Below are positions 1,317 to 40,245 of a stretch of DNA of 64,000 bases, piece after piece. The notes under the pieces were generated by a model. It worked only from the letters and a program-made list of their open reading frames with translations. It was not told the DNA's origin and searched no databases. Origin of the DNA: Naegleria gruberi (Eukaryota); assembly GCA_000004985.1 (NCBI GenBank), contig GG738877.1. One strand, 5' to 3'. The translations under genes were made by a program, and so were the position numbers. Position 1 is the stretch's first letter. Every line of letters begins with the position of its first letter.

Positions 1317-1389
1317 GCTGGCGTAGCTCAGTCGGTAGAGCGTTGGTCTAATAAGCCATTGGTCGCCCGTTCGATCCCGTCCGTCAGCA
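1317..1389 (+). tRNA. tRNA-Ile(AAU)-like; possibly a degenerate copy
   Basis: Acceptor GCTGGCG/CGTCAGC pairs 7 of 7 with one G-U. The D-arm is canonical (GCTCAGTCGGTAGAGC). The anticodon loop is CTAATAA, reading anticodon AAT, and the T-loop is TTCGATC. By eye the T-stem pairs only 3 of 5 and the anticodon stem 4 of 5. Confidence 0.55.
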
Positions 1390-14863: not shown

Positions 14864-14934
14864 TGCGTCGACCGGGAATTGAACCCGGGTCACGGCGATG
14901 GCAACGCCGTATTCTACCACTAAACCATCGACGC
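14864..14934 (-). tRNA. tRNA-Gly(GCC)
   Basis: Reverse complement: GCGTCGA TG GTTTAGTGGTAGAAT ACGGCG TTGCCAT CGCCGT GACCCGGGTTCAATTCCCGG TCGACGC A. It is a cloverleaf with anticodon GCC. Confidence 0.9.
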
Positions 14935-16567: not shown

Positions 16568-19168
16568 TTATTCAATTTCAATGCCCAAAGTTTCTAATTG
16601 ACCTTCAACAAGTCGATGCATTCTTCTGAATGTAGATTGATTCTTCTTAACACGTTTGGTCTTGTCTGATGTTTTGCTTATTCTTGTTTTGATTTTGGTG
16701 GATGGTGTTGATAAATTAGATCCTGGTGAATTGAGTGAAACAGAGTTGGTTGACTGCTGGAGTGAAATTGTTGGTTTGACTGAGAAGGTTGCTCCAACAA
16801 GTTCTTCCTCATCATCTTGTTCAGAATCTGAATCTGAATCAGAGTGGTGATCTTTGAGGATAATCTTTCCAGAGTTGACCGTTGAGTTGTTGGAAGAATT
16901 TGGTTTCACTGTTGTGGTGTTGAGTGAAATTTCCTCGTCAGAATTATCGGAATCTGATTCGATTATTCTTCTGGAACTGTTGGATTTTCTATTATCTGAA
17001 GGTGTATTGAGTGAAACTGAGGTAAATTCTCCCTTTCCATCAGAAGATGAATCAGTTTCATCGTCTGTACCTGATTCAGTTTCATAGTTTAGTTTGATAT
17101 TTTCAGTACGATTAATTAAATCATCCAAATCGTCCAAATCATCAGATTCACGTACTTGATTGGTAGTTCTAGAAACTGAGAATGAGTCCTTAATCATAAT
17201 TTCCATTGCATGATCGTCGTCATTGGATGCTTCGTGTTCAATCATTAACTTGTCCTTCTTTATCTTTTTTGTCTTTTTCTCCTTGTCAGATAATTTGATA
17301 TCTTGAATCTTGACATCAGAACTGCTTCCCATATAAGATGACAAACTGTTGCTGCTACCTGGAGTGGTTGTACCACCATTTGGTGATTGAGAATTTGGTG
17401 GAGAGATGATTGCAGAACCTGGTGAAGTTGAAATTTGCATTGGAGAAGCATGTGCAAAGAGGGAAACTCTCATGTTTTGAGAGGTGAGATCCATATCTTG
17501 GGCATGGCTTGTGAGGTTTTTCATTCCCTCTGGAAACATTAATGAAACACGGTTGGAAGCACTCATATCTCCTGAATCGTCGTGTACAGAAGAGAGCTTT
17601 GAGAGTTTTCCTTCTTGGTAGAGTTTCCTCAAACGGTCAACTGGATTGGCAATTCCTTCATTGTTGATCTTTTCAACATTTTCAGTCTTTTCCAAGAATT
17701 GATTTCTACATCTGTGGAAAGACAAACTCTTCCACATCATTGGAGAGTGAGGAGAAACTTGTTCACTCAAAATGTCATTTGCCTTTTCCTTCTTGGCTTC
17801 CTTAATTCTGTTAAGAATAAGTTGATGAATGGCAATCGATTTTTTCTGAATCAATTCACCTTCATTCAACATTTTTGTAACATTATTAATGGCATCAATC
17901 CACTCCTCTCTATCACGTTCAGACTCGGCCAAGAAGAAATATTGTCTCCCAACAGTGTGTAAAGTAATTCCACATTTGGTATTTTTAGTTGCTTCCACAC
18001 GAGTTCCCTTCAAATCAATCGAATCAATTGGTTCCATTTCCTTTTCACTCTTATAATAGGACAATGCACTGTCTTTCAAAACAAAGAATCTAGTCTTGAT
18101 ACTCTTAAAACTACCTCCCTGTTTCTTTAAAACACCCTTCTTTTCAACTCTCTTTGCTTGATCCCCACGAAGGAAATTTCTTGGATCATTGTAAACTTTT
18201 TTCAAATTTGCATAATAAACACTTGCACGAAGAGCATAAACCCATTCACTAACTTCTTCCTCCAAATCACAAACCATATAATAATTTCTATTCTTTGTTA
18301 CAATAGCAAAACAGTTCTTTTTTCCAATTTGAAATTCATCAACAAACATGACAAGACTGTCAACTTCAATTTTAACACTTCCAGCCGGATACGAATCATT
18401 TTGACTCTTATAATAGGAAAGTGTGTCATCATGAAGAACGAACCATCTCTTCTTCCAGTTCTTTCTCTTTGCCCCTTGTTTGGTAACATTTCCCTTTTTA
18501 CTTGTTAATGAAATATCAAATTCTCTCTCGAGTCTGTAATCACCATTTTCCAGAGTTGGAATGTACAACTTTTTTACATATTTATCTGTAATAAACTTTT
18601 TTCTAAATGAACTGTTTAATAATCAATGATGCAATACACACACAACAACAAGAATGTTATATCAATTCAACACAGTGTTACGTTATTAATCAATTGTCAA
18701 AAAATTCAAAATTCATCAATCATTATCCGATATTATTCGAAAGTGATCATTTTCAACAATTCATCATCAATCATCACACAGGTAACACATCAATATAATA
18801 AACATTCATAATTATTATATAAACAATACATACTACTTGTCGTGAGCAGATGGTTTTTCAAAAGGAAATAAATTACATTCCCAATATGCATTAGCTTCTA
18901 CATTTCCTACTCTATTCATTACTTCATATTGTTCTTCATCATTCCATTCATCCAATTCAACTGATTTCACTTTGGAAATGTGTGTTCCCATTGATCGGTG
19001 AACACCCGAACAATTGATACAAACAAAAACACCAAGATTAGTTGAAGCCCATGCTGTTTCTGTTGCTAAACAATCAGCACAATATTTGTTTTCTGATTTG
19101 TTTTTTATGCTGATGATTTCTTGTTTGTAGTTTTTAGAGGTCTGTGCTGTTGTGGCGATGACAGACAT
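16568..19168 (-). CDS. ADAP/centaurin-alpha-like protein: an ArfGAP domain plus two PH domains, joined across a 225-nt intron (18836-18612)
   Basis: The ArfGAP zinc finger is CADCLATETAWASTNLGVFVCINCSGVHR in exon 19168-18837. A GTAGTA donor and a TTAAACAG acceptor give an in-frame join to ...SFRKKFITDKYVKKLYIPTLENGDY. Two PH domains follow (WKKRWFVL..., KTRFFVLKD...). Confidence 0.6.
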
Positions 19169-19370: not shown

Positions 19371-21686
19371 TTACCAAACATCTCTACATAATCTCTTTTC
19401 ATGTTCCAATTCTTCCATCTTGAGAGTGGCTTGGTCATTGGAAAGTGATTCATGTTTGATGAAAATATTCTTGAAAGTCTCAATCACAGCAGGGCACATT
19501 GAAGATCCATCACCACAAATGTAAATGTGGGCATTTTCTTTAACAATCAAATTGTAAAGTGATTCTGAATTTTCAAGAATTAAATCTTGCACATAGACCT
19601 TCTTCTTTGGGTCTTCTCTAGAAAAGGCAGTATGTAATTCAATGGAATTATTCTTTGACCAATTTTCCAACTCGGTTCTATATAAAAAGTCCTTATTTCT
19701 ATCTCTGCAACCAAAGAAGAGAATATTTCTTCCCTTTGCCTGCAAATTTAATCGTTCTTGGATGAATCCCATGAATGGTGCAATACCTGTTCCTGGGCCA
19801 ATCATAATAATTGGTGTGCTAGTGTCTGATGGCAGCTTGAAATCTCTATTCTTCGAAATAAATATTGGTACTATGGATTGATGTTTGAGGAAGTTAGTGG
19901 CTACACCCTTTCTATTCTTATTAAGGGTATTATAAGTTACAATGGAAACAGTTATTGTTGCCTTTTCATTCTTAGTTTCAACAGCTGATGAACTGATTGA
20001 GTAATATCTTGGTACAAGCACTTTGAATTGATCGACAATGTTTTGAATAGTTATTTTAGACTTGGTGTAAGTATTCTTGTTCGATTTGTGAACGAGAGGG
20101 ATGAGGAAATCTTCCAAAACATCCTCTACCCATCTATCCTCAATGTAGGAATTAAGAGTACTTTCGTCATGCAAAATATTGTCCAATTTGGTTTTCAAAT
20201 CTTCCATGCCAGTGAAATCTTGCTTATCGTGAAGTAATTGCAGCAGTGAGGCACTGACTTGCTTAAGATCGTAGAATCTTGTAATGGCTTCCTTGAGGGT
20301 AATATATTCTGGCATACCACTATCAGCATTCTTGAATGGAGAGCTTTCTGCAGGTGAGAAATAGTTGCTTGGTGCATTAACGAGTGGGGAAGCACTAGAT
20401 CCATGCTCACAAGTAAAGAAATCACTCAAATACTTGAAGAGTGTCTCTGTAACTTGAGAATCATTCTCAGGAAGGACTCCCAGAGCGTCACCACATTCAT
20501 ATTTCAAGCTCTTATCATCCAACAAATCAAAACAAAAGTGAACACATTCTCTAATGTCTTTTGGATTGGATTCATCAATGCATATTCTTCTATTTTCTGT
20601 CACCTTAGCAAAGAATGGATTTGTTCTGTCGTACTGAGTTGTTGTTGACAATGCATTGGCAGAATCACTTTGTAAATAGTCCAAAAGAGGTGAATTAACT
20701 GTAAAATTGGCTCTTCTCTCAGTGATTTGTTGAACAACTCCGTTAAGCCACTTATTAATAGATCTCCAATCGTCTCTATCAATGTCAACTCTATCATGAA
20801 TCCTCTCCGATTGTATAAACTTGCTCTCAAACAAAGAATCAAGTGTTTTCCCTGATCTACAAAAGTGTGTATAACTCTTATCACCTAATGCAAGTACAGA
20901 GTAATAAATATTAGAGGTGGTTTCAATTGATTTGTCTTTCTTTTCTTGCATCGATTCAAAGAATGATAGGGCTGCATTTGGAGGCACTCCTTCTCCATAC
21001 GTTGAACAAACTGAAATGACACAGCTTTCTTGACTCCAATCTATCACATTGTAGTGTTTCAAATCTAATAATCTAGGAACAAAGACAAAGTCATCCTTGT
21101 TATTCAACTTTTCCACAATTTCCTCACAAATTTTCATACCAACTTGTTTTGAAAACCCGAATTCTGTACCATACAAGACCAAAATATTAATCACCTTCTT
21201 TTGCTTATCAAGTGACGAAATAATATCACTGCTGACACTCTTTGGTGTCCAAACTAGTTTTTTAACTGGTGCCTTTTTGATTTGTGTTTGTTCTTCAGCC
21301 TCGGATTCATCCAAACCTTCGAGAAATTCTCTTGTCGACTGAATTTGTTTGTACAATTTATAACCAAGTGTTGATAAGCCAACAATTGCAACAGCTGGAA
21401 GTACAATCTTGTATAAATAGGACCATTTGGATGATTTGTTCTTTGTTGATACCTTGTTAGTGACTGCTCTCGTTAAATTATGAGAAATAATTGATGAAAT
21501 TTGCTGATTATTTGAACTATTAAATTGATTGATGATATTTCTCCCTTGTGATGATGTCTTACCAAACACACTTGTAAGATACATCAAAGTATCCAACAAG
21601 AGTTGGTTATTATTATTGATCATCGATGAACCACTACTACTATGACGAGCATAACTAGGAGGAGGTGGGTAGTTGTTTCTTGTCAT
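19371..21686 (-). CDS. NADPH-cytochrome P450 reductase family diflavin oxidoreductase, membrane anchored
   Basis: It has an N-terminal TM segment and an FMN flavodoxin-like domain (INILVLYGTEFGFSKQ). The FAD motif is RYYSISSS, the NADPH motif GPGTGIAPFMGF, and the C-terminus is ...DVW. Confidence 0.85.
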   Translation of the reverse strand: MTRNNYPPPPSYARHSSSGSSMINNNNQLLLDTLMYLTSVFGKTSSQGRNIINQFNSSNNQQISSIISHNLTRAVTNKVSTKNKSSKWSYLYKIVLPAVAIVGLSTLGYKLYKQIQSTREFLEGLDESEAEEQTQIKKAPVKKLVWTPKSVSSDIISSLDKQKKVINILVLYGTEFGFSKQVGMKICEEIVEKLNNKDDFVFVPRLLDLKHYNVIDWSQESCVISVCSTYGEGVPPNAALSFFESMQEKKDKSIETTSNIYYSVLALGDKSYTHFCRSGKTLDSLFESKFIQSERIHDRVDIDRDDWRSINKWLNGVVQQITERRANFTVNSPLLDYLQSDSANALSTTTQYDRTNPFFAKVTENRRICIDESNPKDIRECVHFCFDLLDDKSLKYECGDALGVLPENDSQVTETLFKYLSDFFTCEHGSSASPLVNAPSNYFSPAESSPFKNADSGMPEYITLKEAITRFYDLKQVSASLLQLLHDKQDFTGMEDLKTKLDNILHDESTLNSYIEDRWVEDVLEDFLIPLVHKSNKNTYTKSKITIQNIVDQFKVLVPRYYSISSSAVETKNEKATITVSIVTYNTLNKNRKGVATNFLKHQSIVPIFISKNRDFKLPSDTSTPIIMIGPGTGIAPFMGFIQERLNLQAKGRNILFFGCRDRNKDFLYRTELENWSKNNSIELHTAFSREDPKKKVYVQDLILENSESLYNLIVKENAHIYICGDGSSMCPAVIETFKNIFIKHESLSNDQATLKMEELEHEKRLCRDVW

Positions 21687-22583
21687 GTGTTTTGAATTTT
21701 TACCTTCCAGATGAGACGTGGCGATTAATCTGGTTTTTTTTCAAGGCTTGTTGAACTGATTCTTAACCTTGATGGTTTTTCAAAGTTTGAATCTTGTTGT
21801 GGTGTGTTGAAGATTTTGTAATTGCAACACACTCATTGGTTCTGGTTTGTTCTGCTGTGGTGTGTGGTAGGAAAAACCAATAGAAATTGCTGGCTTATTA
21901 GCAAGCCGATTCTCCTATTTGGAAGCTTTCTCTAGAGCGAATTGTAGCCAGTCCGATTCCAAAATTTGATGATGGTGATGAGTGTGACTGGAATCAAGAC
22001 GCAAAATTTCAACTACCTAGCATGTGTTAAATTTTCACACACACGAACGAGGATCTTTTTTCAACTCCCTCGATTTACAGTATCCTCTCAATAAAGAAGT
22101 TGAACAACAATCAAGACTTGTTATTGGTTCAATTTCCATGGCCAGTATTGAATCCTTCCTGAGATGCTTTTTACTGTAATTTCTCAATTTCTCCACATGA
22201 AAATGTTGATTTCATTTGAACACATTCTCTTCCTAAACTAACATTGACACAAATTAACCTTCAATTATCCACAACTAATACACATGATCAATCTATTGAA
22301 TGAATCTTACCAAGTGAGCTTGTTCCAACTCTTCAAGATAACACCTCAGGTTTTTTAGTTCTTCGTTGTTCGAATCTTTGCAGAGAGCGCCAAGCAAGTT
22401 AACAACCTTTGAAAAAAATTCACAACACACACCTCTCGCGACAAAGATCTAAAAATCGTACAACCACGAGTCGGAGAGAAAACGTTTGATCATATCGTCA
22501 TCTATTTATCATCACACACAAAAGAATATTAACGAATATTAACAACAACAACAACAATTATATATAACTGTACAACAATAACG
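21687..22583. promoter_or_regulatory. shared divergent intergenic and 5' region between the CPR-like and GGR-like genes
   Basis: This ~0.9 kb separates two divergently oriented ATGs. It is visibly more GC-rich than typical intergenic DNA here. Confidence 0.3.
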
Positions 22584-24149
22584 ATGAGTGAATTATTAAA
22601 GACTAAATTCGATGAACTTATGTTGTTGGTTCAACAAAAGCCTTCTAAACAAGCTCTGATTAAATGGCTCTTATTCAGTGGTGGTATCTTGATTTTGATT
22701 TATGTATACAAGGCTAGTGGAATTGGAAAACTCTTCCGTAAGAAGCCTAGAGCAATCCGTGATCCAAATATCAACTCTACTCACCGTTCTAAACAATCAA
22801 CTCTTAAAGAAAACGAATATGATGTTTGTATTGTTGGTGCTGGTCCATCAGGAGCTACTTGTGCCTATTATCTTGCCAAGTTTGGATACAAAGTTTTGGT
22901 TTTGGAGCAAAAGTATTTCCCACGTGAAAAGACTTGTGGAGATGGTTGTACTGCCAAAACTCTTGCATACCTGAAGGAAATGGGTGTTTTACAAGAATTA
23001 GAAAAGGAAGGAAAGGTCGCCAGTATGGGAAGTGGAGGTATTGTTGGTCCTAATGGTTTGAGTTTCATTGAAAATTCTGGTGCTACTATTGAAAAGATCA
23101 GTGGTGACAATAATTGGACACCAAAAGCAATCAAGAGAATTCACATGGACGAAAAGGTTGCTCGTGCTTGTCAAAAGATGGGTGCCGATCTTAAGGAAGG
23201 TATGGATGTCACCAAGGTTAGTCGTAACTTTGTCGGATTGAAGGGGTGGTCTATTGTTGCTAATCACACTCCAAAGGAAGATGGTGAAACCAAGCAAGTT
23301 AAATTTTTGGCTTCAGTTCTCGTTTGTGCTGATGGTGCTCCATCTAAGCTTGCTACCTCACTCAAGATGGTCAATGAAGAACCACAAGGTATTTCTTCAA
23401 GAGTTTACGTTTCGAACCACAAGATGGAAACTAATTGCATTATCTTCTATCCTAAGCCAGTTTTGCCAGGTTATTGTTCAATGTTTTGTCACTCTGATGG
23501 TGATGTTTCTTTGTGTACTTATATTGTTCCAGGTGGTAAACCAACTAAGGATGATTTGGGTAAACTCCATGAATATTGTACAACTGAAGATCCATTGATT
23601 ACAAAGGCTCTTGGCCCAAATCCTCAATGGCAACAAATGAAGGCTGCTTATTTGAGATTGGGAGGTATTTCTAACTCATACGGTGATAATATTCTCGTTA
23701 TTGGTGATGCTTGCGGTTTGATTAATCCAATGACTGGTGAAGGTATTCACTACGCTATGGATAGGTATGTTTTATTTTTTTTAAAAATTATTTACTGACC
23801 TATTTCAAATAGTGGTAAAATGGCTGCTGAAGTTTTAGGTGATGCCATTAAGGGTGGTGATCTTTCAAAGAATAAGCTCAAACTCTATCAAGATATGTGG
23901 GAATACCAATTTGCTAATGACTTCCATTTCTCTAACGAAGCTGCTGTTCTCGTTGCTAAGTATCCACTCCTCCTTGATGCTGTTGCTTCAGCTGTCAAGA
24001 AAAAGGGTGGTAAATTCTTGGCTGAATTTGCTATGGTTTCTTCAGGTGTGAAGAGTTGGTCTTGGTTCTTGAGACCTGATGTTGCTTTGCCACTTCTTCT
24101 TGAAGTTGTTCTTCTTTCAATCTTTGGTACTCCAAAAAGACAAAAATAA
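22584..24149 (+). CDS. FAD-dependent geranylgeranyl reductase family (ChlP/GGR-like) oxidoreductase, 2 exons with an intron at 23765-23812
   Basis: FAD fingerprint YDVCIVGAGPSGATCAYYLAK..LVLE and family signature GDACGLINPMTGEGIHYAMD. The signature is split by an intron running GTATGT...AAATAG. There is an N-terminal TM segment. Confidence 0.75.
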
Positions 24150-24255
24150 ATTAATTTATTAGTCCTTAATTGTTATTAGAGATTAATTTGAATTATTTCG
24201 TTTAAGCTGGATGGATTATCGTATTATTATTAAAAAAAATTAGTTTATGAAATAA

Positions 24256-25185
24256 TCAAATATCTAATTGCAAATCCAACTCTGAAAAGTAAGGTAAATC
24301 ATCTAGCAGCGTTTCATATTCAGAAAGTTTCCTTGTTATAAACATATTAGAATTCAATTCTCTTTTCAATTCACTTGGTATTAGTATGGGAGAGGTCGAA
24401 TATTTGGTATTGGAAAGAAATTGAGAGAATATAGCATTTGAATACTGATGCCACAATTCTTCCAATTGTTTTGGGCTCACACTAAAAGCAACCTTAGATA
24501 GAACACTGTAAAATGGAAAATCATTCTCAAACTCCTCTCTCAATAGTCCTACATCTTGTGGAAAATCTCGATTGAAAAATATTCTATAATCTGTCGTTGA
24601 CACATTATTCTGGTCCTTAATTGAATTAGCTCCACTGAATTTCATCATTAAATTCCAAAATTCAATATAAACATACATGAAAAAATCGAAAATTTCTGAA
24701 GTTACTTCTTCTGAAAATATATTTCTAATTTCCTTGATAATTTCCAAATCCGACGATGATACTCTACTCAAAATATTTGCTATTGAAAATGTGTAAATTA
24801 CACAAACTATCACTCTGGCGTTGGTTGAATCATTCTCATCCAAAATCATACTATTTACAACACTCGATAATTCTAATTTAATTTCATTAATAAATTCTAT
24901 AGCCTCTCCGACTGATGACAATTCTCCTCCTCCATTATTTTCATCTTCATCACAGCTGTTATCCAATATTACTATTTCATGATTTTGTTCATCGTCATCG
25001 GATGATGATTTATGTTCATTCCGATTAGAGTAAAAGTATTTGTAAATTCCATAACATGACACAGCCACTCCTGTAACAATACTCGATCCTATCAGCAAAT
25101 TTCTCTTCTTTCTACGGTCTACTTGTTGAAATTTCTGCCAATACTTGGTTAATGATGAAGTTTGAAAGAAGAGATCATGAAACAT
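24256..25185 (-). CDS. single-pass membrane protein, unknown; the N-terminus is reminiscent of peroxin PEX3
   Basis: The N-terminus is a basic cluster followed by a hydrophobic helix and G.Y..YKYF (RRKKRNLLIGSSIVTGVAVSCYGIYKYF). The rest is acidic and unassigned. Confidence 0.45.
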   Translation of the reverse strand: MFHDLFFQTSSLTKYWQKFQQVDRRKKRNLLIGSSIVTGVAVSCYGIYKYFYSNRNEHKSSSDDDEQNHEIVILDNSCDEDENNGGGELSSVGEAIEFINEIKLELSSVVNSMILDENDSTNARVIVCVIYTFSIANILSRVSSSDLEIIKEIRNIFSEEVTSEIFDFFMYVYIEFWNLMMKFSGANSIKDQNNVSTTDYRIFFNRDFPQDVGLLREEFENDFPFYSVLSKVAFSVSPKQLEELWHQYSNAIFSQFLSNTKYSTSPILIPSELKRELNSNMFITRKLSEYETLLDDLPYFSELDLQLDI

Positions 25186-25243
25186 TTTTTTTTAATAATA
25201 CTTATTTCCAAATTTAATTTGGGATGTTAAAAAAGATAAAAGA

Positions 25244-25317
25244 TGCCTCCCTTGGGAATCGAACCCAAGACCTCTGTCTTACTAGGACAGCGCTACTGCC
25301 AACTGAGCTAGGAAGGC
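25244..25317 (-). tRNA. tRNA-Thr(AGU)
   Basis: Reverse complement: GCCTTCC TA GCTCAGTTGGCAGTAGC G CTGTC CTAGTAA GACAG AGGTC TTGGG TTCGATT CCCAA GGGAGGC A. The anticodon is AGT. Confidence 0.9.
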
Positions 25318-25416
25318 TTTCTTCAAAGATTTTTCGTACACAATCTAGTGTAAAACGAAAACAGTTCTTTGAACACAGAACCATAGCATGCAAGTTCCCA
25401 CAAATTAGGCTAAAAA

Positions 25417-26358
25417 ATGTCGTTAAAGCTGTGTGATCTGTCTTCCGATTTGCTGAATGAAATTTTGTTGTTGCTGGATAATTTGTTGGGCTACGATAGG
25501 AATATCATAAATTTATGCTTGGTTTGCAAAACTCTCTATTCAGAGATATCTAAAATTAATAATTTTTGGAATGATAAAATTCATAGAGCCTTCATTCCTT
25601 CGTGTTTTGACACAATTTCCATCAAACAATTGAAAGATTTGGAAAATGAAAACAAACTCATGACAGCTTACTTTAATTTGGAATATTTCTGTATTAATGA
25701 TTCCAAACTTCCAGTGGAAGATCTTGTGAAAATTGAAAACTTTGAAAAAAAACAATTATCAATCTCAACAATTGGAAATGATTGTGACAAGTTCTACACG
25801 GGAGCTGGATTTGGGACTTGGTTTCAAGATGGATTTTATAACCACGAGTACATTTATAGAAAAGGACGGTTTGAATATAGTGGATTGGTCAATTTTGCAG
25901 TCAACCATAAAATATGTTGTAACTTTGACAGTGGTTATCTCTACATTGGTGACGAGTTTCCAAACAATATTTTTGATGGTTTTATTTGGTTGACAAGCTT
26001 GTGGGAATTGACAGATTGGACTGAAATTGAAAGGAGGTGCTTGATCATTAATGACTTTTATGAAGGAAAGGTCAAGATTGATGAACCTGAAAAGCCATTC
26101 TTTATTTGCCTGGTTGCGAAACATTTTGATAGAGAAACATTTGAAAAGATTGTTTATTTATTGAATGGATATATTAAGAGGAGAGGAATGACAGTTTCTC
26201 GACTCATGTATTGTAATTTATTAACGATAGAGCCAAAAGCTGTCATGCTCAGTTTACTAAGCAGAATTTCCAAGAGTTTCTTTTCACAACTATTGAACCA
26301 TCTCCACACAAAGTTTGTCCCTCTTGGCAGACAAAAGAAAAAGTGTTTCCTTATGTAA
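25417..26358 (+). CDS. hypothetical protein with an F-box-like N-terminus
   Basis: A 313-aa ORF. The N-terminus LCDLSSDLLNEILLLLDNL is F-box-like. I recognise no other domain. Confidence 0.45.
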   Translation: MSLKLCDLSSDLLNEILLLLDNLLGYDRNIINLCLVCKTLYSEISKINNFWNDKIHRAFIPSCFDTISIKQLKDLENENKLMTAYFNLEYFCINDSKLPVEDLVKIENFEKKQLSISTIGNDCDKFYTGAGFGTWFQDGFYNHEYIYRKGRFEYSGLVNFAVNHKICCNFDSGYLYIGDEFPNNIFDGFIWLTSLWELTDWTEIERRCLIINDFYEGKVKIDEPEKPFFICLVAKHFDRETFEKIVYLLNGYIKRRGMTVSRLMYCNLLTIEPKAVMLSLLSRISKSFFSQLLNHLHTKFVPLGRQKKKCFLM

Positions 26359-26390
26359 TTATCTCTTACTAGTTCCAAATAATATTTTAT

Positions 26391-27713
26391 TTAAAAGAAT
26401 TTACCAACAATGTTTGAATCTTGTTCCCAATCAGATGACAAATTACCATTCGGATGGAAAATTAGCTTATTAACAACATTAGGATACTTATCAAATGAAC
26501 TAGCTAGTGCATCATAGGAACTAGTCTCAAAAATCACATCAATGGAATCCTTATATCTGTAACTCTCATTCATGTAATAATATCCAATTGTTGTGAACAT
26601 GTAATTGAAATTCTTTCTCACATTTGAGAATGTAGGAGCTACTTGAGAGAGCACTGATGAAATAGTAACTCTATTCTCATCAATCCAACGTTTGGTCTTA
26701 TTTTGATTATCATATCCTTCCTCTCCAATCACTGACAATTCTCTAAAGACAACTCTTTTTACACCCAAATTAATGGCCCATTCCAAATATTGTTCCACTT
26801 GTTCAATATTAGAGATACCTGCCTTAGTGAGAATGCATGAATTCTTCACAACTTTGAATAATGGAGGAAGTACATTCTTGGTGACATTTTCATAAATATC
26901 ATTCAATCGAATTGGTTGTACCTTTTCAAATCTCATAATCTTCTGATTAACTTGTTCATCAAAATGTTGTCTACTCAATTCAATTCTATCAAAATTAAGA
27001 TTTTTCAAACTGTCAACAACCTCTTGAGCATAAAGAGCAAATCCACTTCCATTCGAATACAAAACCTTTTCATCAAATAAATCTGGATATCTTTCCAATA
27101 ATTCACAAAATCTCTGAAACCAATTAGGTTCACTTGTTGCTTCCAATCCAGAAAGTGACAATCCCATATTTAACTTTCCCTTTTCTTTTTGAATGTTATC
27201 AAGAATTTGGAAGGATTTTTCAAGCCCTTTAAAATACTGATCATAATCTTTGATTCTTTTAGTAGGATATGAATTCATCTTCTTTTTAGAACTAGGATTC
27301 TCATCTTGCATTCTTTCTAAATTTTCACTGCAGAAATGACAGTTGGCATTGCAAATCCTTGCAAAAGCATACGGTGTGAAAGTCAACCCATTTCTAACGT
27401 GTAAAATTTTGTTTTTTTCAGATGCATCCGATCCTTGCCAATTAAATATCTCTGATGATAGAGGTGTCATTAATTTAGGTTCATAGAGTGATGATTTCAA
27501 TTGTCTCATGCGAATCAGCTCTTCATCACTTGTTGCTGTCATTACTTGATTTCTGTATGCGTGATGATGTAGAGAAGCAGTGGCGACAGTACATGTGTGA
27601 AAGGATCGGGAGAGGCCAAATTCTCCCACCATGTTCAAGTTTGAACTTTTAAATGATGACGACAAAAAACTCTTTGATGATGTTACTACTGCACAGAGTT
27701 TCATTTTTTTCAC
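26391..27713 (-). CDS. radical SAM domain protein with a presequence-like N-terminus, unclassified
   Basis: It has CX3CX2C (ICNANCHFCSE) and a GGE-like motif (LSLSGLEATSEP). The N-terminus is rich in S, K and R without acidic residues. It matches none of the usual eukaryotic radical-SAM enzymes that I can recall. Confidence 0.7.
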   Translation of the reverse strand: MKKMKLCAVVTSSKSFLSSSFKSSNLNMVGEFGLSRSFHTCTVATASLHHHAYRNQVMTATSDEELIRMRQLKSSLYEPKLMTPLSSEIFNWQGSDASEKNKILHVRNGLTFTPYAFARICNANCHFCSENLERMQDENPSSKKKMNSYPTKRIKDYDQYFKGLEKSFQILDNIQKEKGKLNMGLSLSGLEATSEPNWFQRFCELLERYPDLFDEKVLYSNGSGFALYAQEVVDSLKNLNFDRIELSRQHFDEQVNQKIMRFEKVQPIRLNDIYENVTKNVLPPLFKVVKNSCILTKAGISNIEQVEQYLEWAINLGVKRVVFRELSVIGEEGYDNQNKTKRWIDENRVTISSVLSQVAPTFSNVRKNFNYMFTTIGYYYMNESYRYKDSIDVIFETSSYDALASSFDKYPNVVNKLIFHPNGNLSSDWEQDSNIVGKFF

Positions 27714-31888: not shown

Positions 31889-32141
31889 TTTTTAACTAAA
31901 TGTTTTTACACCTCAATCAGCCGTTTTGAAAACAAATAGAGGAGAGCGAGAGCAGCAGAAGCTTTCATCTCACATGACTGCTTGGTGAATAGAGTGAAAG
32001 AGCATATTGAATGAGCGGTTAGTACCACCAGCAAGTTAGTTCCTTCTGTTACCAAAATATTGTAATCTTCAAGAAAAAAAATTTGGTACTTTGTTGCTGA
32101 AGTGGATGACTGTTTCATAATGGCCATATATTGTTGTTCCC

Positions 32142-32745
32142 TTAGTGATATGAATCTTCATGGAGATAACCTCTGTACAAATCACCATGTCTTTTAATGA
32201 ATTCAACTGAGTTCATTACTAATTTGTATAATGATTTCAAAGTAATAGATTCATGATAAAAGTTTCTCAATTCTTCAAATTGATAGTTAATATATTCATT
32301 CCAATCTTCAATTATAAGTCTTTCATCAGTTGTTAGATCAATATTATCATTCATTGGAATTAAGTATTTGTATGTTGAATGATCATTTTCAAACTTCATT
32401 ATTTTTCTTCTAATTGAATCATTAATTCCAGATTGCAGTATTGACAGAAACATAAGGAGCATCTTTAGTTTTGAAATTTGAAAATGTTGAATTAGAATCA
32501 TCTCCTTCAGAAACAAGAATATTCCTTTGATGTTAATTTACAACAATTATTATGTTCAACAAATTAGTACCACTATCTTTAGTATATTTCACAAATTCAT
32601 CAACTCCAGAGAATTCATTCAATTTATCAATTAGTGGAAAATCCTCACGCTTTTCAGATGGATATTTGGATCCAAATACATCCGCAAAGTCAAAATACTG
32701 TGAGATGTTGTGGATCCTGTTTGGCGGAATCCCCTCTAATTAGTT
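32142..32745 (-). CDS. hypothetical small spliced gene, tentative
   Basis: The minus strand at 32745-32545 reads LEGIPPNRIHNISQYFDFADVFGSKYPSEKREDFPLIDKLNEF... The downstream ORF ends ...NEYINYQFEELRNFYHESITLKSLYKLVMNSVEFIKRHGDLYRGYLHEDSYH. The junction between the two is unresolved. Confidence 0.25.
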
Positions 32746-33361
32746 TTTTACAAATTAAATCATTTATTTTTTCTTGGCTGGATTCAAATTCCTTCTTGAG
32801 TGCTTAGGTAAAGGAATTCCTTTAATCTGTGATTTTCTTTCTTCTTTTGGAATTTCATTAATTTTAGGTGTTCTGTTGTTTCTATTGGTTCAGTTAGTTT
32901 CTGGTTTTTCAGATTGAGATGAAGATGGAATAGAATTAGAAGAATATGGTTCAGATGAGTAGTTGTTACATTGCAAATTAATAAAAACAAGATTGAGAAC
33001 AAGTAATTATACTAATGGGTATTAAAGCTTAGGGACTGTTTCATCTTTAAGGTGATTCAGCCTTGAGACCTGCTTTAATGGATATAAATCTTTATTAGCA
33101 TTGGCTGTTTCGAATCGAAGAAGCGAGAGCAGAAGCACCTTGTGAACCAACCTTGGCGTTGTTTGAGTCTTTGCCAGGTGATATCTTTTGCTAATTGTTC
33201 TTCTTGTTCTTCTTCGTGTCTTGAACAGGAGGTGAAGGCATAACAGAACTATCAGATGAATTAGGTTATTGTGGTGATAATTTTTGAGCATGGAAAAATA
33301 CTCAACTTATATTTTATTAAGTTTACAATGAAAACAAGTTAATTCTTCACTTCGCTCAGAA

Positions 33362-33637
33362 TTAGACACCAGTGGCTGCTAATCCAACACGTCTTAAATA
33401 TCGTTTCTTGGATTTAGAATTAAGCACCCAATTACCCGCTGTAGCAATAATCACCTCAGAAACTCCCTTAGAAGCCAACTCGGTGGCTGTACCTATACGA
33501 AAGCTATGTCCAGAGACATGATTAGTTCCTACGGACATTGCATTCTTAATAATATATGATAGATCAGTTGTTTCTAAATACAGGTCGTCGAACAAAGAGA
33601 ATAATGGAGAATCTCCAGACTTGAAATGTTTAACCAT
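33362..33637 (-). pseudogene. tyrosine recombinase C-terminal catalytic fragment (box II)
   Basis: GHSFRIGTATELASKGVSEVIIATAGNW...KRYLRR. This is the H-x-x-R...G-N-W...Y tyrosine-recombinase signature. Confidence 0.65.
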
Positions 33638-33747
33638 TATCGAAGTTTACTGTGATAAATGGAATACCTAGGAGTTTTGTTAGACTTCCATCAAGGTTTG
33701 GTAAAAATTCCAGAAGACAAAAAGATTACAGCTTTAGAATTCATAGA

Positions 33748-33972
33748 TCAAGAAACAATTGGATGGATGGACAGGTTCTGATTATTTATATTCCATAAAA
33801 TGGGAGTATGTCAATGCACTAAGCCGCAGCAATAAGCTTGCAGAGTATCGAGTATTGCTTAGAACTTTTGCTGTTAACTAAAAAACTTACCAATTATCAG
33901 ACATTACAAGAAATTTCACAATTAATTACGAAGAACTAGATTGTTTTCTGTTAAAGCAACAATGTATTACTT
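33748..33972. repeat. left copy of a ~225-bp inverted repeat pair; partner at 37972-38207
   Basis: I aligned it by hand against the reverse complement of 37972-38207. The match is near-identical, with a few substitutions and one ~6-nt indel. It covers caagaaacaattggatggatggacaggttctgattatttatattccataaaatgggag... Confidence 0.8.
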
Positions 33973-35939
33973 AATTATTAATAAATTTATTTTTAAAAAA
34001 TCCTTGTGTTGAATCTATCGGATAATCCGGATCCAGGATTCACGTTTTTATTGGAATCTTGGATCCAACTGATCCGTGTGGGATTTGGATCAAGGATTTT
34101 CCATCCCCTAGGTGTAGGGAATACTTGTTGTGCATTATGTTGTGGAGGTCTAGTATTAATTAAAAGATTGATTCTGTTTATTGGTTTTATCTTTTTATCT
34201 TTATTCATCATCTCTTTTGGGGTTTTCTTTGGAATGATTGTTTACTATTTTGAAACAGAAGACATTCTAGAATTAGATATAGATTAATAGACTTCCGGAA
34301 AAAGTTTTGCTAAAAGTCGACTTTTTTAAGGTACTTTCACGCTAATTTGCAAAAAGGCGCCTAAAAGGTGCCTTTTTTACTAAAAACTACTTGAAACACA
34401 TCCAAAGTTTGTTCAAGAAAATCTTGAGCAACTTTCAAACTGTTTTCAAATAATTCCTCAAAACGTTCAAGTATTTGCTGAAAAAACCCCAAGGGCCTTC
34501 AAACTTCTGAACTCACTCTCTTTCTTAACTATATCCCATCCAAAAAATCCACCAATTCCTTAAGAGATCCAAGGTTTTTGAATGTCACCTGGTAATTGTT
34601 CTATAATGTCCTTTAACTCGGCACTCATAATTGCAGAGTAGAGGTCACCATCAGATTTTTTAAATAGATTAAAAATATTTTTTGCCCATAGTAGATTGCA
34701 TTTTTGTATTTTGGGCGTAAGTTCCTCTATAGTTGAAAATAAAGTTGTGTTTTCCATTCCGTCAATACTACTCAGTGCTGATGCTAACGTGAAAAGAGCC
34801 ATATCAGAGTTGGAGGCTGAATTAGTTGGACAGGAGGCAAAAGAGCTTTGTGATAGGGATCTGGTGAGAATCATAATGTATTTTTTTTTAAGTCTAAAAT
34901 TATTGGTTGCCAAGACTCCAAGTTTGCAATGTCGATAATGGCTGAAAATGCAAAAAATCAAAGAACTGAAGAAGGGAATTCGCTGTGGGTTTAATCAATT
35001 TTTTGAAATTAGGCAACATACAAGACTCCACCAACAGAGTATTTTGTTCAATTCCATACGGTGATTGGGTCAAAGTGCTTACTGGAATGTTATCAAAGAA
35101 TACCACATTTCCATTTAGTTTTACTTTACGAGAGTGGATAGATATAATTGAGATACTAAAAATGTTCGAATTACCTTTCCATTATTGGAAATATTTGACT
35201 ATGCAATCCCCATACGCTCTATTAGCCCTTCATCTACATTTATCCATATCTGAAAACTTGAGTTGTGAACATAATTATTTATTGGGATTAAAACCTGATA
35301 TGTATTGGTTTTCAAGTTGAAAAAATAACAAAACAAGGAGATTTGTTGGATCAGGCATTCACAAACCTATGGAAAAACTCTTTACATATCTTTTTCGGGA
35401 CTGATACTGAAGCTGTGAAATGGTTTGTTCAAAATGACAAGGATAATTTCTTTTCTTGGAACACAACAATCACTTCTTTACGCAAATGTTTACGTTAAGG
35501 TATTGAGAACTGCCTAGAGAAATTTAAAACTATTAAAAACAAATGTGTTACGTTCTGTTACTTATATTGTAGGAAACAACAACGAGATTATGGGCAAAGA
35601 TTAATCAATTCCTTACTACCAATCTTATTTACTGTTTTGCTTGGTGTTGTTGATTTTTGTGCCTTTCAGGGTAATTCTATTATCCTAGATTCTACTGCTT
35701 TTGCTGTAGACACTGGTTTATCAATTGCTAATGCTATACTTTCACTCGCCTCTTCGATAGGGAATGCAGTCCTCCCAATGCAGCAAGTGTTTATAACTCA
35801 ATCGTGAAAGCACTTGTTGATGCTGTTGATTCAGGAGGTGGTTTGTTTACAAAGTTCCCTCCTTCAAGTATTGAAAAAGATTGTCCTTCATAGAGTATAA
35901 TGAAGGGCAATCTTTCTTGGATAATCTACTTTGATACTA

Positions 35940-36639
35940 GATTACGATAAATTATAGAGGTCTCCAGGTCTTGCTAATAATCTGAAACCAATAATTAAAA
36001 TGGCTGTAGTTAAATTAAATGTGAATTCATCGTGGGAAGCCACGGAATCAATATAATTCTTAATATCATAAGCTGAAACTCCATTTCTTTTTAGTTTCTT
36101 TCTATCAACAATGTAAGTATACCTTAAGTCCTTTCTTTAGTCTAGCAAAACTATTGGGAACATTAAGTTTCCAACCTTCAACGTTGAAGAACGAGAAAGA
36201 ATTGAAGAGCTGGCTTCAAATTGTTTAAATCATACCCTTTCTTATTAACTGAAAGGTAAGCTGCAAAGCATTCTATTGCATAAGGATTAGATCTTGGAAT
36301 ATTGTGAATCACTAAGAACCATTGGAAAGCTCCATAAACTTTGGAATATTTCTGAATGGTTGAATTGGCTAGAGAAATTGATAGGTAATTTCTCATCAGT
36401 AATATAGTTGACCGTTCACTTGAGCTACCAGGAATGTTTGATCTTCGAAGTTGTTGAATAATTCGGTGTACGGATCCACGATAAGCATTCTTCTTGGAAC
36501 CTTTCTTACTTTTAAGGATATCCTTAATAGTATTGGGAACCAATGAGAAGTTGGCCACTCCGGCACTACAAAAGTTCCCTTCGCTCTCTAATTTGATTAG
36601 ATGGAAAAGTGCTTGGGGAATCAGACCTAAAGGAGGCAC
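35940..36639 (-). pseudogene. tyrosine recombinase N-terminal core-binding domain and box I; ends at a stop
   Basis: Core-binding-like block: STIQKYSKVYGAFQWFLVIHNIPRSNPYAIECFAAYLSVNKKG. A second frame reads ...AILIIGFRLLARPGDLYNLS*, which is box I with the Arg. Confidence 0.55.
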
Positions 36640-36651
36640 GCAATAATTCAG

Positions 36652-37817
36652 TTAGTCTTTCTCCCAGGGTTGACCGAATGCATCGGTTTCCATCCAACTG
36701 TTGTATGTTATTGTCACGGCGAATGGGTCTACTGTATGGTGACCGAATTCTTCTACCAAATCTATCAATTCTTGCGAAGATTTCCAATCTCCTAATCTGC
36801 TTAGTCTGTCTGCAATCTTGTTTTCTCTTGATGGGATGTTGACTACTTTGCTGATGTGCCAATCTTCTTTGATTAAGATTATCCAAATGTCTCTTGCAAT
36901 TTCGGATAAATGACTGAGATAGCCGTAACCTTTTGCTACATAAGATAGAGCTGTAGAGTTGTCCCCTCTTATTTCAATGTGAGTATCTTTGGGAAACAAT
37001 CTCAATCAGCTTGCTTCTTTGAAGAATTGAAATATCGCTATCAATTCTTTCACGTTGAATGATGAATCTATTTCGAACTTGCCTACGACGATAGTTTTTG
37101 AGGAGTGGATTGCAAATCCTTCCAGAGATGCATCTGAATTGATTATTATTGACTCTGGAGCGTCGAGTATTAACCAAGAGCCTTTGGATGATTGGATAAT
37201 TTTTCGTAATACCCTCAAATCTTTGGCAGGGCCTCGATTCACTAGCATACTTCCTTTTGAATCTACTCTTATTGTCATTTGCTTTCTTAAACTATCCAGA
37301 AATGGTCTGATCGCCGGATCTGCCAGAGATAGAAATTCCATCTTTCCAATAAACTTGGCTATGAATCTTGTTTGTGCTTAAACCGAACGGAAGGCATTGA
37401 AAGTGGTATGTTTTGCCTTCGAAGATGAATCCTAATAGGACTTTGTTGTTTCCTTACTGGAACTTGAAAACAACCTTTCTTTAAATCCAACTTGCATGCC
37501 CACATCCCTTTTCTTATGAATTTCATAACTTTTTGAATGGATTCCATCTTGAGTGAGTCTGTGCTTTTGCCATCGTTTATCTTTCTTAGGTCCAAGATAA
37601 ACCTCTATTCGGCTGAACCTTTCTTTGGGACAACGTTGATAGGATTTAGAACTGGATTTAAAGAATAGGTTATAATTTGGTTTTGTAACATGGAGTCAAT
37701 CTCTCTCCTTATCCATGCTTTCTCTTTCTGAGAGAACTCCTCTGGTGGTAGTTTTTCCATTGGCTGGAATCTGAATCGCTTCAAAACCACCAGAACCGGC
37801 ACCCAATTTAATGGCAA
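36652..37817 (-). pseudogene. reverse transcriptase plus RNase H of the YR-retroelement; frameshifted
   Basis: RT blocks: LNPINVVPKKGS, KLDLKKGCFQVPV, YHFQCLPFGLS. RNase H blocks: NSDASLEGFAIHS, GDNSTALSYVAKGYGY, HISKVVNIPSRENKIADRLSR. The pieces are spread over at least three frames. Confidence 0.75.
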
Positions 37818-37971
37818 TATAATTTAAGTCAGCAATATTCTGGATGAATTCAATAGCTTGAAGCCATTCAACTAAATCAAAAGAGTACCATTTCTCAATC
37901 TTTTACAAACTTGTACAATAATGTGAGATTGGGCTAGTAGTAAAGGATAACCTTTACTTCTAAATTCTTTT

Positions 37972-38207
37972 GAAGTAATACATTGTTGTTTACACTTGCT
38001 TTAACTGGAAAACAATCTAGTTCTTCGTAATTAATTGTGAAATTTCTTGTAATGTCTGATAATTGGTAAGTTTCTTCGTTGACAGCAAAAGTTCTAAGCA
38101 AAACTCGATACTCTGCAAGCTTATTGCTGCGGCTTAGTGCATTGACATACTCCCATTTTATGGAATATAAATAATCAGAACCTGTCCATCCATCCAATTG
38201 TTTCTTG
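37972..38207. repeat. right copy of the inverted repeat pair, lying immediately 5' of the RT fragment
   Basis: Reverse-complement match to 33748-33972. Identity decays at both ends (about 37970 and 38210). Confidence 0.8.
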
Positions 38208-38904
38208 TTCTTCTTTAATTTCCTCTCTTTGATTCTTTTAATTTGCCTAATTTGACATATCAGTCTAGTGCCTTTTTGTCAAATTGTAAAAAATAATCAC
38301 CTTGTTTCAATATTGTCAGTTCATCATTTAAATTAATATCTTCTGATTCATTAAATTGAGAAAGTATTTGGAAGATAATTGACTTGTTTCTGAGCAAAGT
38401 TGTAATTGTTTTTGTTTGTCAAATCTTCTAGCTCTTGCAACATCACACGAGTACTTATTTGCAAAAGTAAGATGTCATCTTTATCCATAAACATAGATAC
38501 AAGTCTTGATTTCAATTCTTTAACATCTTTACCAATTCCTGAGAATGTTTATTTATTAACGTTTGAAATTGTTCCATTAAAAATTGGAAGTGCAATACAC
38601 AAATGTTTATTCATATGATTTTACATTGAAAAGTGTCGAGAAACATTAATAAGGCAAGCCCGTATTCTTTACCGTACTAAAAGACCATCCAAGATTTAAA
38701 CATTCATTTAGATTTTTTTCAAAATCTAAAGAAAGTGTTTCAGAATTTTTCCTTCTGAAACTTTCATCAAATAGAGTAAACTAGTTTGATAATAATAAGC
38801 ACGTATTCTCTTAATTACTAAATTATAAACATGCCTATCTTATCTCGAATACTTGCTTTTTTTAAATTAATTGTTCAAGAATTTAAGGAATTAGGCGGGA
38901 AAAA

Positions 38905-40245
38905 ATGAGCACAAATACAACAACATGGCAATCATCCACAAATAAACAACAATACAAGCACCTCCATCGATCGGCAACACAGATACAGGTATGTTGTTGT
39001 GTAATTTTCTTATTGTTATAATGAATTAGAGCCAATGGAGAGGTCATAAAACAAGGAAACAGATCACAGATTGGGCAATGAAGGAATTTGAAAATATTGT
39101 GATGGAGATCGAAGGAAAGGATTCGGAAATATCTTGGAATTCATCGAAGTTGCATTCCTTACCAATGCCATCTGTTTCAAATACAAAATTGAGGTAATTT
39201 TCAAAGAATTTAAATATTTGAATTAAAAATCGGAAATTGATAATCAAATAATGTAGTGAGGATGAAAATGATTTGGATAGGATTCTATCAAACTTTGTAA
39301 ATAGGAATGATGCTTCACCTTCATCGTCATCAAATGAACCATCTAATCAACCAATATTCATGAAGAATGCTCAGAAATTATTCGAGGAAAAACTGAAAGA
39401 AGCATTTCAGGAACCCTCGGTTCAAACCCCAGAACCTCAAACTCTAAATACTGGTATGAATACATCCGTAATGAACATTCCTAAAATTACAAAAGAACAG
39501 GAAATTCAAACAGAAACACTCAGAACCTCAATAATATCTAAAGAACCTCTGCAAGCAATAACTCCTCAAAATAGAAGACTTGTGACAGTTTCCACAAACA
39601 CCAGTATTGCATTTGATGGAATTCCAAAAATTCAAGAACAAAAAACTCAAGATTTATCTATTGAAATACCTCTCGAAGATACTTCATCAGTTCAATCACA
39701 AGAAGATTTGTCAGACATGTTAGATGAAAGTGCCATAATGATGTCTAATTTGGACATGCTTAAAAGTTTTGATTTCTCAGAAATGAAGAAATCATCAGAT
39801 AGCACCATTTCAACCCAGGCACCAACCAAATCAAAGGAGCCATTCATGCCTCAACAACCAATTCAATCAAAACAAAATGTTTCAAACGATTTCAGTACAA
39901 CTAGATTGAAACAGAGCCAAGAAATTCCACCATCCAAAAACAACTCTATCCTTTCCAATAATAATACTACCAACAATTCTATCAAGTCCAATTTGACTGC
40001 CTCTGTAAATCAAACCACTCCCTCACCTAGCTCATCACAAACTAGTGAAAAATTGCAACAACAGCAAAAACAAGCCAAACAAGAATTACAACAACAAATG
40101 AACATGCTACGATATGAAATTCAATTGGCTGAGGAAGCCTATTCGAGGAGAAAAAAGGTAAGTTGTCTATTTTCATATTTCGAGATTTGTTTACATTTTC
40201 AATGAATAGGAACTTGTTGAAGAAAGGAAGAGGCACATTAGGTAA
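38905..40245 (+). CDS. IQ-motif-containing S/T/N-rich coiled-coil protein, 4 exons
   Basis: Exons are 38905-38988, 39030-39193, 39257-40157 and 40210-40245, with GTATGT, GTAATT and GTAAGT donors and TAG acceptors. Exons 1 and 2 read MSTNTTTWQSS...ATQIQ|SQWRGHKTRKQ, which is an IQxxxRGxxxR motif. Exon 3 carries a C-terminal coiled coil. Confidence 0.55.

Follow-up and report, generated by a model that had tools for sequence, protein, structure and literature searches.

A geranylgeranyl reductase-like gene of Naegleria gruberi with relatives in bacterial sterol gene clusters, and its chance redox neighbours

Three genes for redox enzymes lie between positions 19371 and 27713 (8.3 kb) of a 64-kb stretch of Naegleria gruberi DNA, which was analysed over its whole length and is referred to here as the window. 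They encode a diflavin reductase, a flavoenzyme of the geranylgeranyl reductase (GGR) family and a radical S-adenosylmethionine (radical-SAM) enzyme. The three genes have separate histories and lie close together by chance; they are not a conserved module. The GGR-like protein is probably an N-terminally anchored enzyme that reduces carbon-carbon double bonds (C=C) in the sterol side chain. The best explanation of the neighbourhood as a whole, which we consider reasonably likely, involves no module. It combines a GGR-like sterol side-chain C=C reductase, a diflavin protein of the cytochrome P450 reductase (CPR) or CysJ type, and a radical-SAM enzyme with a single iron-sulfur cluster.

The GGR-like gene and the sterol context of its bacterial relatives

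The GGR-like gene (22584-24149, plus strand) consists of two exons with a spliced product of 505 amino acids (aa). Exon 1 (22584-23764; aa 1-394) encodes a transmembrane segment, an FAD motif, a conserved cysteine and the motif GDACG. It is followed by a 48-nt GT..AG intron (23765-23812), and exon 2 (23813-24149; aa 395-505) encodes a C-terminal extension (FLAEF...FLRPDV) that is a hallmark of the subfamily. The intron was read from the sequence, and the spliced product, in which GEGIHYAMD is joined to SGKMAAE, aligns without gaps over the junction with homologs from N. lovaniensis, Acytostelium and a cyanobacterium. The Willaertia homolog is likewise colinear. A first-pass annotation of this DNA had described the gene as an FAD-dependent member of the GGR family with an N-terminal transmembrane segment, and both features were confirmed. 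The protein passes the TIGR02032 cutoff (164.8 vs 158.8 bits), with MenJ as the second-best NCBIfam match (E 2e-33), and residues 23-47 form a hydrophobic segment (Kyte-Doolittle 1.94). Its FAD motif VGAGPSG (aa 84-90; nt 22833-22853) fits the GxGxxG fold. GDACG is found at aa 374-378 (nt 23703-23717) and GEGIHYAMDSG at aa 385-395, and a conserved cysteine lies in KTCGDG (aa 118; nt 22929-22946), which we take to be the active-site cysteine of the family, Cys47 in the Sulfolobus enzyme. The FAD-binding and GDAxG/GEGI motifs are strictly conserved throughout the clade. Comparison with PDB sequences gave unspecific matches (FixC, halogenases, archaeal GGR) and was not used.

Eukaryotic homologs share 39-46% identity with the GGR-like protein and are about 480-510 aa long. 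They come from Acytostelium, Balamuthia, Soliformovum, many green algae and two glaucophytes, and for several of them the source gives the name "conditioned medium factor receptor 1". The clade thus spans four eukaryotic groups, namely Heterolobosea, Amoebozoa, green algae and glaucophytes; no animal homolog was present among the matches listed. Bacterial homologs (42-44% identity, 414-445 aa) have no N-terminal anchor, and a C-terminal extension of about 60 aa is common to this bacterial sister clade and the eukaryotic proteins. The earlier description of the protein as prokaryote-like is therefore only a loose fit, since the clade is present in four eukaryotic groups.

The bacterial relatives connect this clade to sterol synthesis. 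A cyanobacterial homolog (P0137; 43-44% identity) is encoded in a textbook example of a bacterial sterol cluster, which comprises two 3-beta-HSD-type genes, an FMO-like gene, a Rieske/VanA_C oxygenase, the GGR itself, a Sterol_MT_C methyltransferase, a Rieske/KshA_C oxygenase and an oxidosqualene cyclase. The methyltransferase gene lies 20 bp downstream of the P0137 gene. The contig was assigned to Cyanobacteria because it carries 10 HIP1 sites in 13 kb. A second bacterial homolog (P0152) is encoded two genes away from a sterol methyltransferase. A metagenome scan yielded 80 GGR loci, among which the subfamily was defined by at least 44% identity to P0137 and at least 500 bp of flanking sequence. 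A sterol methyltransferase, oxidosqualene cyclase, Rieske or 3-beta-HSD gene was found beside the GGR gene at 14 of 37 subfamily loci and at none of 37 control loci with GGRs of other types (Fisher p = 1.3e-5). In 8 of these 14 sterol-linked loci the methyltransferase is the immediate neighbour. The absence of sterol neighbours from the control loci indicates that an association with sterol genes is peculiar to this clade. MenJ-like proteins reach only 27-29% identity, compared with 42-44% for the proteins from sterol clusters.

The first-pass annotation had looked to phylogeny for a bacterial or archaeal origin of the GGR-like protein. In neighbour-joining (NJ) trees the protein falls in a eukaryotic clade, and this clade was united with the sterol-linked bacterial GGRs, apart from MenJ-like and other GGRs, in 76/100 replicates. 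The named eukaryotes grouped to the exclusion of the sterol-linked bacteria in 96/100.

A candidate sterol side-chain reductase and competing explanations

A GGR homolog with activity on sterols has been characterized in bacteria. Bsr of Sandaracinus amylolyticus saturates the C-24 double bond of sterols, converting zymosterol and desmosterol to C-24-saturated products (Lee and Welander, 2025; PMC12004948). Bsr was stated to occur in sterol-producing bacteria alone and not in eukaryotes, and the homologs in Table S2 of that paper are 351-387 aa long (PMC12004948). The Naegleria GGR-like protein belongs to the same superfamily and shares the FAD motifs and the conserved cysteine with Bsr. The reaction type proposed here, reduction of an isolated side-chain C=C, is the one shown for Bsr. 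Relatives of both proteins are encoded together with bacterial sterol biosynthesis genes, whereas the Naegleria gene itself is not so placed. The Naegleria protein further differs in being eukaryotic and in having an N-terminal membrane anchor and the C-terminal extension of about 60 aa. In the proposed mechanism, the enzyme would reside in the endoplasmic reticulum (ER) and transfer a hydride from reduced FAD to a delta-24(25), delta-24(28) or delta-25(27) double bond of a sterol substrate. Because the bacterial sister genes adjoin sterol methyltransferases, substrates with alkylated side chains are suggested. The first-pass annotation had noted that GGR-family and radical-SAM enzymes of archaea and bacteria both act on isoprenoid and lipid substrates. 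The idea of an isoprenoid lipid substrate gains support for the GGR-like protein, whose bacterial sisters are embedded in sterol clusters.

Sterol synthesis in these organisms leaves room for such an enzyme. Zhou et al. (2018; PMC6136796) reported an ERG4 homolog in Naegleria and found no DHCR24-type enzyme. They also showed that part of the cholesta-5,7-dienol of N. gruberi is synthesized de novo, and suggested that the organism switches between methylation at C-24 and reduction at delta-24. The synthesis of this sterol therefore calls for delta-24 reduction despite the lack of a DHCR24 homolog. In green algae and Acanthamoeba, sterol methylation proceeds through delta-25(27) olefins (PMC6495176), and in Chlorella variabilis no C-24(28) reductase was identified (PMC8453531). 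In the literature search, no paper connected sterols with the eukaryotic CMFR1-like proteins. In Heterolobosea, Amoebozoa, green algae and glaucophytes, cycloartenol is the starting point of sterol synthesis, and for several of these lineages no reductase has been assigned. We tentatively propose, as an idea with a real but less than even chance of being correct, that an unrecognised eukaryotic sterol side-chain reductase is encoded by the Naegleria gene and, in Amoebozoa, green algae and glaucophytes, by the related genes labelled "CMF receptor 1". The enzyme would act on delta-24(25) and/or delta-25(27) double bonds and would be sister to the methyltransferase-linked bacterial GGRs.

Several observations weigh against a sterol side-chain reductase. 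About 60% of the subfamily loci have no sterol neighbour, and many of these loci lie on short or possibly eukaryotic contigs. The trees are of the NJ type alone, and support for the key clade is moderate (76/100). The eukaryotic members are not clustered with sterol genes, so that the sterol link depends on bacterial sisters at 42-44% identity; such clustering is, however, not expected in a eukaryote. The bacterial sisters also differ from Bsr. Compared by length, they have 414-445 aa and a C-terminal extension, as against 351-387 aa for the Bsr homologs. Since they are longer and share the extension with the eukaryotic proteins, they may form a second GGR clade with links to sterol synthesis, uncharacterised so far and specific for another bond. 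Two motifs raise further doubt. The YxWxFP motif, which we take to position the substrate in the GGR family, reads GYCSMF in the Naegleria protein (nt 23469-23486), with the Y and F alone kept. The Willaertia ortholog (P0124 on L008) has RIGGNT in place of KTCGDG, with a glycine at the position of the conserved cysteine; either the gene model is wrong there or the catalytic residue has truly been lost. Lastly, a Dictyostelium member of the family has reportedly been described in experiments as a receptor that binds conditioned medium factor (CMF), and the family name is said to come from that ligand-binding study and not from enzymology.

Some of these observations would be accounted for if the GGR-like protein reduced a prenyl chain other than a sterol side chain, such as a quinone side chain (as MenJ does), polyprenol or dolichol, or phytol, or if it were a non-enzymatic receptor of the CMF type. 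The rank of MenJ among the family matches and the divergent YxWxFP position are in keeping with this explanation, as is the receptor label that family members carry in their sources. We nevertheless consider it unlikely. Identity to MenJ-like proteins is well below that to the proteins from sterol clusters, and sterol neighbours are confined to the subfamily and absent from the control GGR loci. The Dictyostelium CMFR1/cmfB family does belong to the same eukaryotic clade (39-46% identity) and has the same length, N-terminal membrane segment and C-terminal extension. However, the strict conservation of the FAD-binding, GDAxG and GEGI motifs favours catalysis over a pure receptor role, and the evidence assembled here favours a flavoenzyme of sterol metabolism over a receptor.

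A sterol side-chain reductase in this clade would have several consequences. GGR-type reduction of the sterol side chain would not be purely bacterial, which bears on the debate over the exchange of sterol genes between bacteria and eukaryotes. The delta-24 reduction that is unexplained in the "cholesterol arm" of Naegleria would gain a candidate enzyme, as would delta-25(27) reduction in green algae and amoebae. The CMF "receptor" of Dictyostelium would be a sterol enzyme and would be worth re-examining. In Naegleria fowleri, Balamuthia and Acanthamoeba, drugs are already aimed at sterol synthesis. Given that no animal homolog was among the matches listed, the GGR-like enzyme may be a selective target in these amoebae.

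The diflavin reductase, the shared spacer and the question of a module

The diflavin gene (19371-21686, minus strand) is a single open reading frame (ORF) of 771 aa, identical to NCBI protein P0241. As the first-pass annotation had it, this is a CPR-like gene. All three diflavin domains were detected with Pfam: Flavodoxin_1 (aa 170-292; nt 20811-21179), FAD_binding_1 (aa 352-599; nt 19890-20633) and NAD_binding_1 (aa 628-731; nt 19494-19805). The order of the FMN (flavodoxin), FAD and NADPH domains is that of CPR and CysJ. An anchor-like hydrophobic segment at aa ~91-112 (nt 21351-21416) is kept in three Naegleria species (Kyte-Doolittle 1.6-2.0), and such an N-terminal anchor is shared with CPR. 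The N-terminus is of low complexity, and the roughly 90 residues of this kind that precede the segment distinguish the Naegleria protein from CPR and CysJ. The best PDB match is E. coli CysJ (218 bits), about equal to the CPRs (200-206 bits), but the protein falls short of the CysJ model TIGR01931 (371.6 vs 668 bits). The closest relatives outside Naegleria are green-algal proteins resembling "sulfite reductase flavoprotein" (32-36% identity). The protein is a CPR/CysJ-type reductase with an N-terminal hydrophobic anchor, and the label "CPR-type" is fair as a description of its architecture (FMN, FAD and NADPH domains with an anchor). It would act as a membrane-anchored electron donor passing electrons from NADPH through FAD to FMN, and the partners that it reduces in the ER could include sterol P450s or, perhaps, the GGR-like enzyme.

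Enzymes of the GGR family depend on an external reductant. Because of this need, and because both proteins are anchored, the diflavin protein is a possible donor to the GGR-like enzyme. A dedicated pair of this kind, expressed in N. gruberi from a bidirectional promoter, would agree with the head-to-head arrangement of the two genes, with motifs that are mirrored at the two ends of the spacer between them and sense-oriented to each gene, and with the presence of green algae among the closest non-Naegleria homologs of both proteins (Bryopsis has both). The pair is, however, improbable in view of the wider distribution of the genes. They are unlinked in N. lovaniensis, where the two orthologs lie on different contigs, and in Willaertia. 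The amoebozoan species with a GGR-like gene are absent among the diflavin matches listed. Likewise, the bacterial sterol clusters of P0137 and P0152 have no flavodoxin or diflavin gene beside the GGR gene. A role of the diflavin protein as donor to the GGR-like enzyme is thus not supported by synteny or by the bacterial sterol clusters.

The spacer itself (21687-22583) was measured at 897 bp, which agrees with the head-to-head arrangement across about 0.9 kb that had been annotated. It is rich in GT towards the left end and in CA towards the right. The claim that it is unusually GC-rich did not survive measurement. Its GC content of 0.358 stands at the 66th percentile among windows of the same length, close to the mean of the 64-kb window (0.346) and equal to that of long ORFs (0.355; 0.328 outside long ORFs). 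A weak inverted repeat (21686-21761 vs 22392-22429) is present, and the mirrored end motifs read CAAsCyTTGAAAAA and AAAATTCAmAACACA. CACACAC heptamers are concentrated here, with 5/6 of the window total falling inside the spacer. Compared with block shuffles, the repeat is of marginal significance (P 0.02-0.07), and neither it nor the motifs are conserved upstream of the N. lovaniensis GGR-like ortholog, which also counts against a dedicated pair. A shared promoter element was considered on these grounds and rejected: the repeat and the CACACAC enrichment are real, but the repeat is marginal and not conserved in N. lovaniensis. A hidden gene was also rejected, with six-frame ORFs of at most 53 aa and no convincing spliced model. 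Rfam and tRNA scans of the spacer found nothing.

Conservation of the neighbourhood was examined within 10 kb on either side of the radical-SAM ortholog of N. fowleri (59% identity) and of the GGR orthologs of N. lovaniensis (77%), Willaertia magna (52%) and a Naegleria-like ENA contig (70%). None of these flanks holds a second member of the set as a neighbour (diflavin, GGR or radical-SAM), and a tblastn search with all ORFs of the window found no shared neighbour in them. The conserved adjacency expected of a module is therefore absent at all four heterolobosean loci. The first-pass annotation had speculated that the diflavin, GGR-like and radical-SAM genes, with a special spacer between the first two, could be a co-regulated module for modifying isoprenoids or lipids. 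This is very improbable. All three genes do lie inside 8.3 kb, and the GGR-like enzyme probably acts on an isoprenoid lipid. Yet the spacer is of ordinary composition, two unrelated ORFs and a tRNA gene transcribed by pol III intervene between the GGR-like and radical-SAM genes, and no adjacency was found at any other heterolobosean locus examined. The radical-SAM gene also has a separate history and a different partner, which accompanies it at 54/67 bacterial loci, where a GGR or diflavin gene never does. Nothing ties it to the diflavin or GGR-like genes. No sterol or lipid gene beyond the GGR-like gene was found in the 64-kb window.

The radical-SAM gene and other features of the window

The radical-SAM gene lies on the minus strand, 2.2 kb past the GGR-like gene. 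The listed ORF (26391-27713) starts at a GTG at 27713; the first ATG, at 27704, is the likely start and gives a single-exon coding sequence of 437 aa (26391-27704). The location had been noted correctly, but the gap is not empty. It is filled by a 309-aa ORF without a family match (24256-25185, minus strand), which stands outside any redox function, a tRNA-Thr(AGT) gene (25244-25317, minus strand) and a 313-aa ORF without a family match (25417-26358, plus strand). The NCBI model of the radical-SAM protein (P0001) starts at M55 (nt 27542; 383 aa), 54 codons inside the ORF. Residues 1-50 form a basic extension rich in serine and lysine that is absent from bacterial homologs and present in all three Naegleria proteins. 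Because the N. fowleri protein (447 aa) and that of a third Naegleria (428 aa) are also extended at the N-terminus, the public model may be truncated. The extension may be an organellar presequence.

The protein matches PF04055 (32.4 bits vs a cutoff of 29.5), and its cluster motif CNANCHFC (CX3CX2C) is found at aa 118-125 (nt 27330-27353). Among 60 homologs, the invariant cysteines are C118, C122 and C125 and, outside the cluster, C290 alone (within nt 26826-26843). C-terminal cysteines for an auxiliary Fe-S cluster of the SPASM, twitch or MoaA type were not found in this comparison. Classification by Pfam, NCBIfam, PADLOC, PDB sequences and PDB profiles gave generic or sub-threshold matches only. 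For viperin, NF038283 scored 16.8 bits against a cutoff of 180, and the PADLOC match to pVip reached E 2e-5 only. The protein thus stays unclassified, as first described, with no clean match to lipoyl synthase, biotin synthase or TYW1. Compared with MoaA, viperin and SPASM enzymes (13-14% identity), the Naegleria family has no auxiliary Fe-S cluster and no curated model match, and it is distinguished by an N-terminal RN...W helix and a C-terminal GYYYxNE / ETSSY beta domain. It would represent an enzyme with one [4Fe-4S] cluster, from a family that is uncharacterised and mainly bacterial.

This family is found chiefly in Bacteroidota, Myxococcota, Blastocatellia, Calditrichia and Nocardia. The closest relatives of the Naegleria proteins outside the genus are mostly from Bacteroidota and Myxococcota (38-46% identity), with a few protist sequences. 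The description of the protein as prokaryote-like is therefore apt, with the protists alongside. The three Naegleria sequences were monophyletic in 50/50 NJ replicates, near sequences from contig L010, Telonema and an MMETSP transcriptome. Contig L010 is eukaryotic, with TRAPP, RCC1 and intron-split genes. The N-terminus of the Telonema subtile sequence (P0050, from EukProt; …SDVYKRQ…) resembles the translation of a sequencing adapter, and the 5' end of this transcript-derived sequence therefore cannot be relied upon. An RCC1-repeat gene adjoins the radical-SAM gene in N. fowleri (L001 8015-9382) and on L010 (10340-11461), in different orientations; since such genes are abundant, this adjacency is probably due to chance.

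Bacterial relatives at 38-46% identity might suggest that the gene is bacterial contamination or a very recent, non-functional transfer. This reading has already been refuted by the genomic context. The gene is flanked by eukaryotic genes on a 395-kb N. gruberi scaffold, and its GC content at third codon positions (0.28) is the same as that of neighbouring genes. Orthologs occur in N. fowleri and the third Naegleria, the N-terminal extension is of a eukaryotic type, and related genes are found on the eukaryotic contig and in two protist transcriptomes. The host-like composition and the extension fit an old transfer, possibly with organellar targeting.

In bacteria, the radical-SAM gene has a frequent companion. 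An ORF of about 160 aa lies 3' of it at 54/67 loci, at most about 100 bp away and often overlapping (L003 9086-9580, L004 9200-9685, L005 1439-1909 and 51 further loci). The two are fused at one Polyangiaceae locus (L071). Invariant residues of the partner include a GT..L...DCD pattern that recalls small nucleotidyltransferases, and it has no Pfam, PADLOC or PDB profile match. At about two dozen Myxococcota loci, as at L046 (4019-5881), a tandem-duplicated dioxygenase of the TauD/TfdA family (~620-720 aa) lies directly upstream on the same strand, which suggests a three-gene small-molecule pathway. A GGR or diflavin gene was paired with the radical-SAM gene at 0/67 bacterial loci. The partner was not found by tblastn and hidden Markov model searches of six-frame translations of the window, the N. 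fowleri locus and contig L010. The Naegleria gene thus marks an uncharacterised two-gene system that is widespread in bacteria and from which a few protists acquired the enzyme half alone.

The DNA of the window is nuclear, rich in AT (GC 0.346) and part of a scaffold of 394.7 kb. The radical-SAM and diflavin ORFs are 100% identical to NCBI entries named "predicted protein [Naegleria gruberi]". Other eukaryotic genes in the window encode Yju2, LUC7, a PH-domain protein, a RUN-domain protein, a Kelch protein, a class II tRNA synthetase and a GCN2-like kinase. Directly downstream of the diflavin gene lie two minus-strand ORFs, one with a PH domain (16568-18568) and a short one with a CxxC...CxxC zinc finger of ArfGAP-like type (18833-19168), which look like exons of one centaurin-like ArfGAP gene (16568-19168). 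Two further tRNA genes are tRNA-Gly(GCC) (14864-14934, minus strand) and tRNA-Ile(AAT) (1317-1389, plus strand). A region of 7.5 kb (31889-39359) has no ORF of at least 150 aa on either strand, which is unusual in this gene-dense window and may reflect intron-rich genes or non-coding sequence. The GCN2-like protein (59515-63327, plus strand) has a protein kinase domain followed by HisRS-like and anticodon-binding domains.

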